NCBI GenBank assembly: GCA_050175015.1
Contig: JBFXJJ010000010.1
Coordinates: forward strand, 9,987 to 73,986
Direction: 5' to 3'
Source: Alphaproteobacteria bacterium
GTDB lineage: Bacteria > Pseudomonadota > Alphaproteobacteria > JBFXJJ01
Length of the DNA stretch: 64,000 nucleotides
This document shows positions 28,656 to 31,836 of the stretch, piece after piece. Position 1 is the first letter of the stretch. Each line of letters starts with the position of its first letter. The translations under genes and the position numbers were made by a program. The notes beneath the pieces are model-generated. The model was not told the origin of the DNA. It made no database searches and saw only the letters and a program-made list of their open reading frames with translations.

Positions 28656-29736
28656 AAAGAGAAAAAATCCTTTTAATAATATTTTCTGGGTTATGGTTGT
28701 TTATAGTTAGCTTTATGCTTTCATTACTAAAGTTTAATATATTATCTTTTGAGGAAATAACACGCTCTATTTTGTTTTTTAAATCATTTTCGTTATCTTT
28801 CTCAAAAAGGTAACCGTTTGCATTTTGTTTTATGTAACAAGATGTGCCATTGTCATTGCTACAAATAACAGGAAGAGCACAAGACATAGCTTCAAGTTGT
28901 GAAAAAGAGGCTGGCTCCTTACTGCTTGGTAAGACAAAAAGATTATGTTTTTGGTACTCTGCCAAAATGTCATTATGAGGTAAATTGTTTTTTATCGTTA
29001 TATAGTCATCTGCATTGTTTTGTTTTATTAAGTCCGTTATTTTCGCAAAATATTGGAGATGTTCAGGCGTTGAATTTTCTCCAATTATGGTTAAGGATAA
29101 ATCATATTTAGCTTTTAAGTCGCAAACGGCTTTTATCAAAAGGTGAAGATTTTTTCTTTCAACAAATTTACCAACAGAGATTATTTTTATTTTATCACAA
29201 GGAACAATCTTTTTTGAGGTAACCTCTATTGCAAACGGAACATAAAAATAAAATTGATTTAATTGAAAAATGTTGTCTTGAATATTTTTTACAGGAGTAA
29301 TCCATTTGAACCCTAAAAGTTTTGATAACAGAACACAGCGTTTGGTTTTGGGCATTGTTTCAAGTGGATTTTGGCAGTAAAGAATAGCTTTTATTCCAAA
29401 TATTTTTGCTAAGATAATGGTCAAAAAACTAAGGAAAATGGTGTTGGGATCTCTTGCAATAATAAGATTAGGCTGTGCTTTTTTTAGTTCAAGGGCATAG
29501 CTAATAATGTTTGGGAAAAAAGATCTTATAGTTCGGCTATAATTAAATTTAAAAATATTTTTAAGTAGATTGAATAATATTGATGGTTTTATAATTTTAG
29601 GTTCCAAGACATTATAGTTTTCGCTGTTTCCTTTTGTAATGGCAAAAAAAGATACATCGTGGCCTTCTTTTTTCAAGGCTTTAACTAAATAAAATTGATT
29701 TGTGTGAAATCTTGGAGCAACAAACAAAATTTTCAT
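28648..29736 (-). CDS. Glycosyltransferase family 4
   Basis: MKILFVAPRFHTNQFYLVKALKKEGHDVSF N-terminus and a GT-B C-terminal half. Confidence 0.75.
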   Translation of the reverse strand: MKILFVAPRFHTNQFYLVKALKKEGHDVSFFAITKGNSENYNVLEPKIIKPSILFNLLKNIFKFNYSRTIRSFFPNIISYALELKKAQPNLIIARDPNTIFLSFLTIILAKIFGIKAILYCQNPLETMPKTKRCVLLSKLLGFKWITPVKNIQDNIFQLNQFYFYVPFAIEVTSKKIVPCDKIKIISVGKFVERKNLHLLIKAVCDLKAKYDLSLTIIGENSTPEHLQYFAKITDLIKQNNADDYITIKNNLPHNDILAEYQKHNLFVLPSSKEPASFSQLEAMSCALPVICSNDNGTSCYIKQNANGYLFEKDNENDLKNKIERVISSKDNILNFSNESIKLTINNHNPENIIKRIFSLYD

Positions 29737-30998
29737 TGGTTGTTTTCCTTTTTTTTAGGAATGTAACCATCTTGTAGCATTTTAATGTTTTTCGATATTT
29801 CAAAATCTTCTTTTTTGTTTTTTGTAATACAGGTTAAATAGTTTTGGACAAGATTAATATGCGCTTCGCAGGTTAAAATGTTTTTTATTAAAAAAAAGTT
29901 TTTAGTTTTTTTTATAATGTTGAGGGTGTTTTTGCCGTGTTTGAAGCACCAATTATCCCAATATAGTTTAAGTTTTGAACTGTTTTGGGCTATGTCTGAG
30001 ATGTATTTTAAATAAGATAAGAAATAGTTTTTGCCATCATTTTCTAATTTTTTAATAGTTGTTTCATCTTCTAAAAATTCAAAAGGGATAATTTCTATAT
30101 TGGGTTTTTTGTTTGCTGCAAGCTCAATGGTTGCCGCATAGCTAGTATTAAATAAATCTAGTTTTTTAGTTTTTGTTTTTAAGAACGATTTTATCAAAAA
30201 TTTAATTTTAGATTTTAGATTTTTATAAATAATTTTATCGAAAATAAAATTTCCTAAGCTGTACACTATAATAGAGTTATTATACTCCTCATAACCTTGA
30301 GGACAGTGGGTATGACTTGCGATTACTGCATCAGCACCAGCGTTGGTGTATTCTCGGTATAGTTTTACCGTGTTGGGACTGGGAAAGGGACAATATTCAT
30401 TGCCTCCGTGAATAAAAACAACAACAAAGTTATTTTCTTTTTTTAAGTTTTGTATTTGCAAAACGTTCTGTATCGGGGATAAAGGAGAAGAACCACCTTT
30501 ATTATCTTCAGCCATACCAAATTCATTTTCAGCAAGAGCAATAAAGGCGGCCTTAAAACCATTTTTTTCCAAAATAAATGGGGATTGTGCTTCAGATAAA
30601 TTTTTTCCCATACCGATATAGTTTATCTTATATTCGTTTAAAGTTTTGATGCTGTCTTCAATGCCATTTTCATAATCACCAATGTGGTTGTTTGCACAAA
30701 CGGCAAGATTAAAGCCTGTTTGTTTTAAAAAATCAGCACATATGGGGTCTAATTTTAAATTAATGCCAAATTTGGGAGCTTTTTTCAGACTTTTTGTAAG
30801 TGGTGCTTCTAGGTTCAATACCGTAATATCCGATTTGCTGATGTCATTTTTGAATGGTTCTATTATTTTGAAACTTTCTTTGTTTTCTATTCTTTCTTTT
30901 GTTTTGTTCAGAGGACAAAAATCGCCAACACAAAATATTTTGAGATTATTATTTGCCATTGGTTTTATAATCCCATAAATTACCCATCTCGAAATCAA
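29733..30998 (-). CDS. CapA/PGA_cap-family metallophosphoesterase-like protein (the start is more likely the ATG at 30959)
   Basis: VLNLEAPLT, AVCANNHIGDYENGI, VVFIHGGNEYCPFP and ASHTHCPQGYE...SLGNFIFD motifs match CapA-type metallophosphatases. The longest ORF overlaps the upstream gene by 50 nt, whereas starting at the internal MANNNLKIFCVGD gives an 11-nt overlap. Confidence 0.65.
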   Translation of the reverse strand: MISRWVIYGIIKPMANNNLKIFCVGDFCPLNKTKERIENKESFKIIEPFKNDISKSDITVLNLEAPLTKSLKKAPKFGINLKLDPICADFLKQTGFNLAVCANNHIGDYENGIEDSIKTLNEYKINYIGMGKNLSEAQSPFILEKNGFKAAFIALAENEFGMAEDNKGGSSPLSPIQNVLQIQNLKKENNFVVVFIHGGNEYCPFPSPNTVKLYREYTNAGADAVIASHTHCPQGYEEYNNSIIVYSLGNFIFDKIIYKNLKSKIKFLIKSFLKTKTKKLDLFNTSYAATIELAANKKPNIEIIPFEFLEDETTIKKLENDGKNYFLSYLKYISDIAQNSSKLKLYWDNWCFKHGKNTLNIIKKTKNFFLIKNILTCEAHINLVQNYLTCITKNKKEDFEISKNIKMLQDGYIPKKKENNQ

Positions 30999-31836
30999 AA
31001 GATATAGGAAAAACAGGCATCGTTCCTGCGCCAGAGCATGGGGTTAACTCTCCAAAGACGATTTTTTCTTCATTAATGCAGTAAAAATCAACTCTCATAG
31101 CATCAAAATCTTTGCCCAAAATTTCAGCAAGCTCGATCATTTTTTCCATTTTTTTAGGTTTTTTTATTTCGCCTTTACAGGGGTAACCATGGAAAACTTC
31201 GAGGTTTTGTTTATTCCAATCACAATCATAAACAACCCTATAATGATTTTTTGTAAAACGTCCAAAATCTACTTGAATATAGTAAGCTTTGCCTCCAAAA
31301 GTGAAAATTTTATAATCACTTGGAACTCTAAAATCATCTTCATATAAAAAACGCTCAAAAAGAACTCTAGGCTTCATTTTTAAATACCAATTTTCATCTG
31401 TTGCAAAGCCTATTTTATGAGAAAGCATATAGCTCGCTTTATCTTTTATGATTTGTTTTGATATTTTTGATTTATCTTTTACAAGAAAGATGAAATCCTT
31501 GCCACTTCCATGGGCGCCTTTCATAACAAAAGTTTGAGGGAGTTTTTCAAAGTCTATATCAGATGTTTTTTCTGCAACAAGAAAAATATCATTGAGATAT
31601 TCTTCTCCAATTTTGTTTTTAATATAATCTCTAACAAGAAATTTATCACCAATTTTGATAGCATAATCCATATTGCGATAAAGTTTCATATGAAGGGTCT
31701 TTTCGCAGAAAGATTGCGGATTTTTTAAATTTGGCCAGTATTTCATTTTTCTGCGAAAACGCAAAATCTCGTGCAATCTTTTTCCTAAAACAAGACGAGA
31801 CAAGATGTTCATAAGTGGTTTTATTTTTTTAAGCAA
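30949..31836 (-). CDS. TupA-like ATP-grasp protein
   Basis: KLPQTFVMKGAHGSGKDFIFLVKDKSKISKQ matches the TupA-like ATP-grasp core. 295 aa. Confidence 0.65.
   Translation of the reverse strand: MLKKIKPLMNILSRLVLGKRLHEILRFRRKMKYWPNLKNPQSFCEKTLHMKLYRNMDYAIKIGDKFLVRDYIKNKIGEEYLNDIFLVAEKTSDIDFEKLPQTFVMKGAHGSGKDFIFLVKDKSKISKQIIKDKASYMLSHKIGFATDENWYLKMKPRVLFERFLYEDDFRVPSDYKIFTFGGKAYYIQVDFGRFTKNHYRVVYDCDWNKQNLEVFHGYPCKGEIKKPKKMEKMIELAEILGKDFDAMRVDFYCINEEKIVFGELTPCSGAGTMPVFPISFDFEMGNLWDYKTNGK

Follow-up and report, generated by a model that had tools for sequence, protein, structure and literature searches.

What does a CapA-family protein do beside an ATP-grasp ligase in a locus that otherwise appears to build a surface polysaccharide? 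The question is raised by a 64,000-nucleotide (64-kb) stretch of DNA from an Alphaproteobacteria bacterium (GTDB lineage Bacteria; Pseudomonadota; Alphaproteobacteria; JBFXJJ01; assembly GCA_050175015.1, contig JBFXJJ010000010.1, positions 9,987 to 73,986 of the forward strand), hereafter the window, in which two overlapping minus-strand genes encode a TupA-like ATP-grasp amidoligase of 295 amino acids (30949-31836) and a CapA-like or MslH-like calcineurin-fold protein of 408 amino acids (29733-30959) that is predicted to be cytoplasmic and to end in a helical domain with a TCEAH motif. The original prediction for this locus took the pair as a sign that the glycan is decorated with amino acids, glutamate for example, in amide linkage. 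We show here that the ligase is an ordinary further member of a known family, and that the new part of the pair is its CapA-like partner, which is soluble, carries an extra conserved domain and is coupled to ligases. Our main new observation is that this CapA subfamily recurs beside carboxylate-amidating enzymes (TupA-like, RimK-like, ATPgrasp_ST and AsnB-like) in unrelated bacteria, an association of which we found no description in the literature searched.

Profile searches bore out the two domain assignments on which the original prediction was built. The CapA-like protein matches PF09587 (PGA_cap) with 186 bits against a cut-off of 27 (E 1.2e-54; profile positions 1-254 of 255), and the ligase matches PF14305 (ATPgrasp_TupA) with 134.2 bits against a cut-off of 25 (E 7.3e-39; profile positions 8-239 of 241). 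Each of the two is 100% identical to a protein from a metagenome-assembled genome of an 'Alphaproteobacteria bacterium'. The ligase gene is the first gene in the order of transcription and the CapA-like gene the second. A mechanical call starts the CapA-like open reading frame (ORF) at TTG 30998, which would overlap the ligase gene by 50 nt. This start is probably wrong; public assemblies place the start of the gene at ATG 30959, for a product of 408 amino acids, and the true overlap is therefore 11 nt (ATGGCAAATAA). Downstream of the CapA-like gene, seven further co-oriented ORFs of at least 100 amino acids run to 21855, with successive junctions of -4, -8, +2, -16, +18, -17 and -8 nt. The overlap of the pair and its shared orientation with the glycosyltransferase genes, as originally claimed, are thus real, with all seven of these junctions falling between -17 and +18 nt. 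Because the gene junctions overlap or abut, with at most 18 nt between neighbours, the ligase gene, the CapA-like gene and the downstream glycosyltransferase, Wzy and Wzz genes fit a single surface-polysaccharide operon.

The ligase retains all 20 columns that are invariant in a 36-sequence alignment of its family, and its family-invariant residues include K46, K51, D64, K65, K106, K122, E161, D174, K176, R193, R248, D250, E263 and T265. No solved structure of a TupA-like protein was detectable by sequence search, and the only member of the family that has been characterised biochemically is the C-terminal domain of Cj1438 (Cj1438C) of Campylobacter jejuni. This domain catalyses the ATP-dependent amidation of the C6 carboxylate of glucuronic acid (GlcA) in the growing capsule, using serinol phosphate or ethanolamine phosphate as the amine, and the HAD phosphatase Cj1435 then strips the phosphate (PMC11800379). 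Several O-antigen clusters of Escherichia coli also carry a TupA-like ligase; we reached these homologues by a tblastn search of a plasmid collection, which led to E. coli chromosomes filed as plasmids and from there to annotated RefSeq genomes. (The PLSDB records NZ_CP134663.1, NZ_OL790696.1 and NZ_OL790811.1 are 'plasmids' of 4-5 Mb that are evidently E. coli/Proteus chromosomes, a trap for plasmid statistics.) In the cluster labelled 'O46/O134 family', galF comes first, followed by the ATP-grasp fold amidoligase and then by wzx, GT2, wzy, glycosyltransferase, GT2 and gnd, with ugd after gnd, and the cluster labelled 'O167 family' likewise has a TupA-like ligase. The O46 and O134 polymers contain D-glucuronoyl-D-allothreonine and that of O167 contains amide-linked L-alanine (PMC7685785). 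In the O46/O134 cluster the amidoligase is the only gene that does not encode a glycosyltransferase, Wzx or Wzy, and because it is the sole gene of the cluster able to make the amide, the assignment of the TupA-like family as uronate:amino-acid amidoligases is well founded. The ligase of the window is 31-34% identical to the amidoligases of the O46/O134 and O167 clusters, and we consider it likely, from this homology, that it makes an amide on the glycan.

The general idea of an amide-linked substituent is therefore supported by the chemistry of Cj1438C and by the E. coli clusters, yet its finer points fared less well. Nothing at the locus is specific to glutamate; we infer that the amine is an amino acid, but a different amino acid is just as conceivable as glutamate, and so is an amino-alcohol phosphate of the kind used in C. 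jejuni. The acceptor would be a uronic acid provided by a dehydrogenase encoded elsewhere. A tblastn search of the window returned no homologue of UDP-glucose or GDP-mannose dehydrogenase, and because no nucleotide-sugar 6-dehydrogenase lies within these 64 kb, the uronic-acid acceptor of the original prediction is an assumption. The E. coli O46/O134 and O167 strains also keep ugd outside the cluster, so the dehydrogenase may sit elsewhere than in the locus. Lastly, the claim that such a modification is rarely annotated in Gram-negative O-antigen loci was overstated, considering that the NCBI pipeline names the family routinely, that more than 2,000 clusters match it at E<=1e-5 and that several E. 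coli clusters carry it. Amide-linked amino acids on uronic acids are themselves chemically well documented (PMC10609480; PMC7685785).

A second ATP-grasp candidate, which the original prediction had listed as weaker, is encoded on the plus strand at 19204-20316 and is a real ATP-grasp ligase, judging from its relatives and its predicted fold. This divergent RimK/LysX-like protein of 370 amino acids has no Pfam match of its own, and a search of 5.8 billion proteins yielded a single close relative. An exhaustive HMMER scan of 1.8 billion representatives recovered 29 relatives at E<=1e-3, and the RimK ATP-grasp family PF08443 was matched by seven of 25 relatives. A profile-profile comparison (hhalign) aligned its family with the TupA family across the ATP-grasp core (92.8% probability, E 4e-7). 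The AlphaFold model (predicted local distance difference test, pLDDT, 91.9) matches RimK, ArgX/LysX and the D-Ala-D-Ala ligases (Ddl) at E values of about 1e-11, with a Foldseek E value of 9e-12 against RimK 5zct. In other genomes, proteins weakly like this ligase are encoded directly beside CapA-like genes.

The CapA-like protein poses the harder problem. Its AlphaFold model (pLDDT 93.2) begins directly at the first beta-strand of the fold and closes with a helical domain, at about residues 307-396 of the model, which holds the TCEAH motif. Residues D13, E51, N90, N91, H92, D95, E144, E146, H184, E188, H216 and H218 are invariant in an alignment of 39 full-length relatives, as are C364 and H367 of the TCEAH motif. 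The protein has no transmembrane or other hydrophobic segment (maximum 19-residue hydropathy of 0.94, compared with 2.57 for Bacillus anthracis CapA), and a tblastn search of the window with CapB and CapC of pXO2 gave no match at E<=1. We rejected an identity as a poly-gamma-glutamate (PGA) synthase because the membrane anchor, CapB and CapC are all missing; since these three defining features fail, the protein is not filed here as PGA machinery, which is how the original prediction had placed it. It is well supported that both the ligase and the CapA-like protein are cytoplasmic, and that the latter belongs to a distinct soluble subfamily that is linked to amidating enzymes and not to PGA synthesis.

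These observations bear on an explanation that lies nearest to the original prediction, namely that the ATP-grasp ligases build oligo- or poly-glutamate on the glycan while the CapA-like protein plays the part of PgsA/CapA in its elongation or handling. The name of the TupA-like family goes back to a teichuronopeptide producer and its TupA locus, the locus studied here holds two ATP-grasp ligases, the second with its closest likeness to RimK (a ligase of poly-alpha-glutamate) and to LysX/ArgX, and the catalytic domain of the CapA-like protein is 32% identical to B. anthracis CapA. However, the CapA-like protein has neither anchor nor CapB/CapC partners and is cytoplasmic, not extracytoplasmic, the TupA-like enzymes that have been characterised or correlated with polymer structures attach single residues, and there is no indication of glutamate. 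We therefore regard this explanation as improbable.

Among solved structures, the only relatives of the CapA-like protein that could be found by sequence are those of MslH, and MslH is also the best Foldseek match (8itg/8gq9; E 1e-20, TM 0.60), followed at about 1e-8 by YmdB-type phosphatases, 5'-nucleotidases and purple acid phosphatases. In a Ca-dependent reaction, MslH epimerises a C-terminal tryptophan, with H88/D91 and H295/D11 as its dyads and E44, N87, H259 and H261 as its Ca ligands, and it acts by abstracting the proton alpha to a metal-bound carboxylate (PMC10406935). The authors who discovered MslH put forward an epimerase role for CapA as well (PMC8179263). Seven of the eight catalytic or Ca-binding positions of MslH are kept here as subfamily-invariant residues (D13, H218, H92, D95, E51, N91 and H184), and the same residues are also present in CapA. 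They account for both dyads and, of the four Ca ligands, for three, the fourth, H261, being aligned with N187. By analogy, we take the CapA-like protein for a soluble, MslH-like and probably single-metal acid/base enzyme, set in a glycan operon and not in a lasso-peptide cluster. That the chemistry it performs is epimerisation is a narrower claim, suggested by the same analogy, which we hold to be possible but on the doubtful side.

The main rival to an epimerase is a phosphatase. The ligase could use a phosphorylated amine (ethanolamine phosphate, serinol phosphate or phospho-serine/threonine), with the CapA-like protein removing the phosphate in the role of Cj1435. The precedent comes from C. 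jejuni, where Cj1438C accepts serinol phosphate or ethanolamine phosphate and Cj1435 later hydrolyses the phosphate (PMC11800379). The calcineurin-like fold retains motifs III-V of the phosphoesterases (NNH, H184 and SHTH), its fold matches near 1e-8 include YmdB-type phosphatases and 5'-nucleotidases, and DegT-family pyridoxal-phosphate enzymes are present in four of the loci, described below, in which the pair recurs. On the other hand, the histidine of motif I (D-x-H) is absent, the sequence reading G-D-F-C-P, and motif II is N-L-E, with Glu51 in place of Asp, as is the case in MslH, a one-Ca enzyme without phosphatase function. MslH is moreover a far better fold match than any phosphatase, no PGA_cap member with demonstrated phosphatase activity was found in the literature searched, and the locus proteins of the window that were scanned include no pyridoxal-phosphate enzyme for making an amino-alcohol phosphate; they gave no match to the DegT/aminotransferase or HAD families. 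With the D-x-H histidine missing and an SHTH motif nearer to the canonical form than that of MslH, epimerase and phosphoesterase chemistry cannot be told apart from the sequence alone. We consider the phosphatase role unlikely, although less so than any of the other rivals weighed here.

We looked for the pairing of the two genes elsewhere, from both sides. From the CapA side, we scanned 80 genome loci recovered with a conserved PGA_cap pattern, and a TupA-like gene lay within 10 kb in just one. We first read this as an absence of conserved pairing, a view that was revised after a scan from the ligase side and a finer analysis of the CapA subfamily. The ligase-side scan drew 80 loci from metagenomes with an alignment of ten ligase sequences; many of their contigs are short, and just 37 have at least 1.5 kb on both sides. 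A CapA-like gene was present in eight of the 80, always on the same strand, and in five of the eight a distance of -30 to +7 nt separates the two genes, either of which may come first. The complete architecture, down to the CE[AS]H motif at the C-terminal end, is found in six of the eight partner proteins, and the partners are mutually divergent. The loci holding these pairs are Wzx/Wzy glycan loci, several of them with ugd-family dehydrogenases and DegT aminotransferases.

Among the genome loci, the full-length CapA subfamily comprises 19 members (17 with the motif, together with L017 and L020), and about half of these lie in glycan loci. In these, carboxylate-amidating enzymes of other kinds recur as neighbours. 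A RimK-like ATP-grasp gene, weakly related to the second ATP-grasp gene of the window, adjoins the CapA-like gene in Pararhodonellum (L016) and in Flavobacterium cheonhonense (L026), with weaker ATP-grasp matches in Sulfurovum (L009) and in L013. A member of ATPgrasp_ST (PF14397, E 8e-40) is the neighbour in L020, and three neighbours match an AsnB-like amidotransferase, one of them confirmed as adjacent in L024 and the other two assigned, from their size and position, to L021 and L022, where they lie one gene away. Uronic-acid dehydrogenases are encoded in six loci (L104, L128, L056, L009, L026 and L017). What stays constant for the CapA subfamily in glycan loci is a partner enzyme that uses ATP to activate a carboxylate and then hands it on to an amine.

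It could still be argued that the two genes are mere neighbours in a mosaic glycan locus, acting on different substrates, and that the role of the CapA-like protein is unrelated to the amide. About 90% of the TupA-like loci have no CapA-like gene, about half of the loci of the CapA subfamily are non-glycan, and the ligase-bearing clusters of E. coli have no CapA-like gene. Chance proximity, however, sits poorly with an 11-nt overlap in the window and with immediate same-strand adjacency, in both orders, in five independent and divergent metagenomic loci, and the CapA subfamily also recurs beside amidating enzymes of other families. We regard mere neighbourhood as improbable, and think it fairly likely that the CapA-like protein works in the same tailoring step as the ligase.

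Two observations concern the CapA subfamily beyond this pairing. A Bacteroidales metagenome-assembled genome (MAG) has, in the glycan locus L056 (JAFZPH010000006.1, 3469-19316), three divergent CapA-like paralogues (7696-8775, 9998-11146 and 13351-14466), along with two dehydrogenases of the ugd family, an NTP_transf_5 gene and, at 18417-19316, a ligase of the TupA-like kind. The top-scoring full-length relatives of the CapA-like protein are in non-glycan loci of Lentisphaerae, Clostridia and Oligosphaeraceae MAGs (L005, L007, L011, L014, L019 and L025), where the neighbours are AraC-type regulators, ABC permeases of the sugar type and esterase/peptidase_S9-like and isochorismatase-like genes. 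There may be a second role for the subfamily, possibly in catabolism.

A further explanation keeps the MslH-like chemistry and moves it to the sugar. Here the CapA-like protein would act, for example, as an epimerase at C5 of a uronate, giving an L-uronic acid before or after amidation. The C5-H of a uronate is alpha to the carboxylate, as is the proton abstracted by MslH, and carboxylate chemistry is the sole constant among the neighbours in glycan loci (ATP-grasp enzymes of three families, AsnB-like and ugd-family enzymes). In addition, an E. coli cluster with a capA gene yields a GlcA-containing polymer for which no amino acid was reported (PMC10606467). The argument is purely analogical, however, the uronic acid in that E. 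coli polymer was assigned as D-GlcA and not as an L-uronic acid, and no uronic-acid pathway was found in the window. We give this explanation, too, a low probability.

We return to an action of the CapA-like protein on the newly attached residue. As a tentative proposal, which as a whole falls a little short of what we would call probable, the pair forms a cytoplasmic glycan-tailoring cassette that acts on the lipid-linked repeat unit and includes an epimerase step. In the first step, which homology supports well, the TupA-like ligase would yield an amide-linked amino acid or related amine on the glycan. In a second step, the ligase of RimK/LysX type (19204-20316) may extend the decoration by another residue or act on a second carboxylate, amidating it. 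In the third and least certain step, the CapA-like enzyme would bind the free alpha-carboxylate of the new residue and, as MslH does, epimerise its C-alpha from L to D. The decorated unit would afterwards be flipped by the PglK-like ABC transporter, polymerised by the Wzy-like protein and controlled in length by the Wzz-like protein, and the glycan would also contain L-fucose, made through gmd and fcl. A broader possibility, speculative and rather unlikely in its full form, is that soluble CapA-like proteins with the CE[AS]H domain are an unrecognised class of glycan-tailoring enzymes, in which metal-assisted, MslH-type proton abstraction beside a carboxylate sets the stereochemistry of an amino acid or of uronate C5 on bacterial surface polysaccharides, in concert with carboxylate-amine ligases from several unrelated families; in this locus, the fucose-containing glycan would then receive from the two ATP-grasp ligases and the CapA-like protein a short non-ribosomal peptide stub, D-configured in part.

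Several findings weigh against this proposal. The NCBIfam model for MslH scores the CapA-like protein at 34.9 bits, far under its cut-off of 700, and the canonical SHTH (GHxH-like) motif, which MslH has lost, is kept here, such that a second metal site and phosphoesterase chemistry are possible. No CapA-like gene was found in the E. coli O46/O134 cluster, the polymer of which has a D-allothreonine amide; because the ligase suffices there without a CapA-like gene, a CapA-like epimerase is not required for a D-residue, and this counts against the generality of the epimerase step. The O-antigen of E. coli SD2019180, which has capA in its cluster, is composed of GlcA, galactose, fucose and N-acetylglucosamine, with no amino acid reported (PMC10606467). 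AsnB-like neighbours would give a primary amide, and such an amide offers no C-alpha for epimerisation. To these are added the missing route to a uronic acid in the window, the single TupA-like neighbour in the CapA-side scan and the non-glycan setting of about half of the subfamily's genome loci.

We turn now to the remainder of the locus. Downstream of the pair, the minus-strand operon encodes, by Pfam/NCBIfam matches, two GT4 glycosyltransferases (28648-29736 and 27549-28655), a GT2-like glycosyltransferase (26359-27546), Wzy-like (25094-26374) and Wzz-like (24152-25075) proteins, a WcaI-like GT4 (22975-24168) and a further GT4 (21855-22982). Beyond it, also on the minus strand, lie gmd (13831-14898) and fcl (12900-13847), and since both exceed the cut-offs of their NCBIfam equivalogs (619 bits against 415 and 526 bits against 500, respectively), we assign GDP-L-fucose synthesis to the locus and L-fucose to the glycan. 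The genes manB, manC and galE are found about 13 kb beyond the glycan locus. A candidate flippase for the lipid-linked glycan is the PglK/MsbA-like fused ABC transporter at 15077-16879 on the plus strand (ABC_membrane and ABC_tran domains), of which the best NCBIfam match is PglK (E 1.5e-95, under the PglK cut-off). The same strand encodes a DUF268-type methyltransferase (16880-17638), a 205-residue protein that weakly matches Erm-like methyltransferases (17690-18307), a 295-residue protein without a family match (18304-19191) and, after the second ATP-grasp gene, two more methyltransferases (20361-21020 and 21026-21868). This plus-strand block (15077-21868) converges on the glycan operon, and its three or four methyltransferases are an unusual density for one glycan locus.

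Upstream of the ligase gene, a 214-nt intergenic region (31837-32050) separates the operon from a divergent plus-strand MBOAT acyltransferase gene (32051-33514; PF03062, E 1e-37) and is the likely promoter region of both. The two best minus-strand sigma-70-like matches are inside this gap, at 31926-31883, although the promoter scan overall was no better than chance, with 47 matches against 50 expected from shuffled sequence, and the terminator scan gave nothing above chance. The best NCBIfam match of the MBOAT protein is DltB (147 bits, under the cut-off of 375). It could place an O-acyl group on the same glycan, either acetyl or, conceivably, aminoacyl. The plus-strand gene that follows (33531-34478) encodes a 315-residue protein with no Pfam or NCBIfam match. 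In terms of base composition, the glycan locus has a G+C content of about 30%, while most flanking housekeeping regions have 35-40%; in detail, 12000-36000 is at about 29-33%, the gltB region (8-12 kb) at 38-39% and 36-48 kb at 33-41%. The low G+C of 12000-36000 relative to its flanks fits a horizontally exchanged surface-glycan island. Outside this island, the minus-strand stretch at 2524-6399 contains a gene for a 919-residue protein with only a faint match to FG-GAP repeats, which adjoins one for a DUF6782 putative metallopeptidase.

Where amino acids are amide-linked to uronic acids, O-antigens and capsules change in charge and in antigenicity. It is by now reasonably clear which ligase family does this, and CapA-family genes keep turning up in such loci without an assigned role. 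The function of CapA/PgsA is a long-standing gap in PGA biology, and a soluble, ligase-coupled relative would offer a much easier handle than the membrane-bound PGA synthase for testing the idea of a CapA-type epimerase. Cultured carriers are at hand in Flavobacterium cheonhonense, Pararhodonellum marinum and E. coli SD2019180.

How, then, does this locus compare with the systems that are known? Its ligase shares with Cj1438C a Pfam family and a setting in a surface-polysaccharide locus, where, for the HS:2 capsule of C. jejuni, amidation at C6 of GlcA is followed by a tailoring enzyme (PMC11800379). It differs in that the C. jejuni domain is fused to a GT2 glycosyltransferase whereas the ligase of the window stands alone, and in that the HAD phosphatase and pyridoxal-phosphate enzymes of C. 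jejuni are absent from this locus, where the partner is CapA-like. The amidoligases of E. coli O46/O134 and O167, like WemR of Proteus mirabilis, are closer in form, being stand-alone TupA-like proteins of about 280-295 amino acids in Wzx/Wzy O-antigen clusters, but the E. coli clusters have neither a CapA-like partner nor a second ATP-grasp gene. That second ATP-grasp ligase finds its best structural matches in RimK, LysX and ArgX, which ligate amino acids onto C-terminal carboxylates, although its sequence similarity to them is marginal.

For the CapA-like protein, the nearest parallel in an O-antigen cluster is capA of E. coli SD2019180, a CapA-family gene in a Wzx/Wzy cluster with gmd/fcl and GT4 genes, the polymer of which has L-fucose and GlcA (PMC10606467). 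As far as the published description allows a comparison, that gene differs in encoding 351 amino acids, in being followed by a hypothetical gene of 546 amino acids and in having no TupA-like ligase before it; no E. coli CapA-like gene was found in the plasmid collection. The authors described the role of capA in the O-antigen cluster as not yet elucidated, and in their table the C6 of GlcA is at 169.0 ppm, with a cross-peak at 4.71/53.9 ppm in the heteronuclear single quantum coherence (HSQC) spectrum dismissed as an impurity (PMC10606467). In our reading, which is not that of the authors, these two signals could fit a derivatised carboxyl group and the alpha-CH of an amino acid that was partly lost in acid release.

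B. anthracis CapA, encoded in capBCADE of pXO2, shares with the protein of the window a PGA_cap domain with 32% identity over 261 residues (3-242 of the window protein against 57-306 of CapA). The true CapA, however, has an N-terminal anchor and capB and capC as partners, and has no C-terminal helical domain with the CE[AS]H motif. MslH (PDB 8gq9/8itg), in turn, is like the protein of the window in being soluble, in its length of about 400-440 amino acids, in its calcineurin-like fold and in having the two His/Asp dyads and all but one of the four Ca ligands, although identity in the structural alignment is about 15% and the protein of the window has Asn at the position of H261 and keeps SHTH. 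MslH acts on a ribosomal peptide together with a RiPP recognition partner (RiPP, a peptide made on the ribosome and modified after translation), whereas its counterpart here is encoded in a glycan operon.

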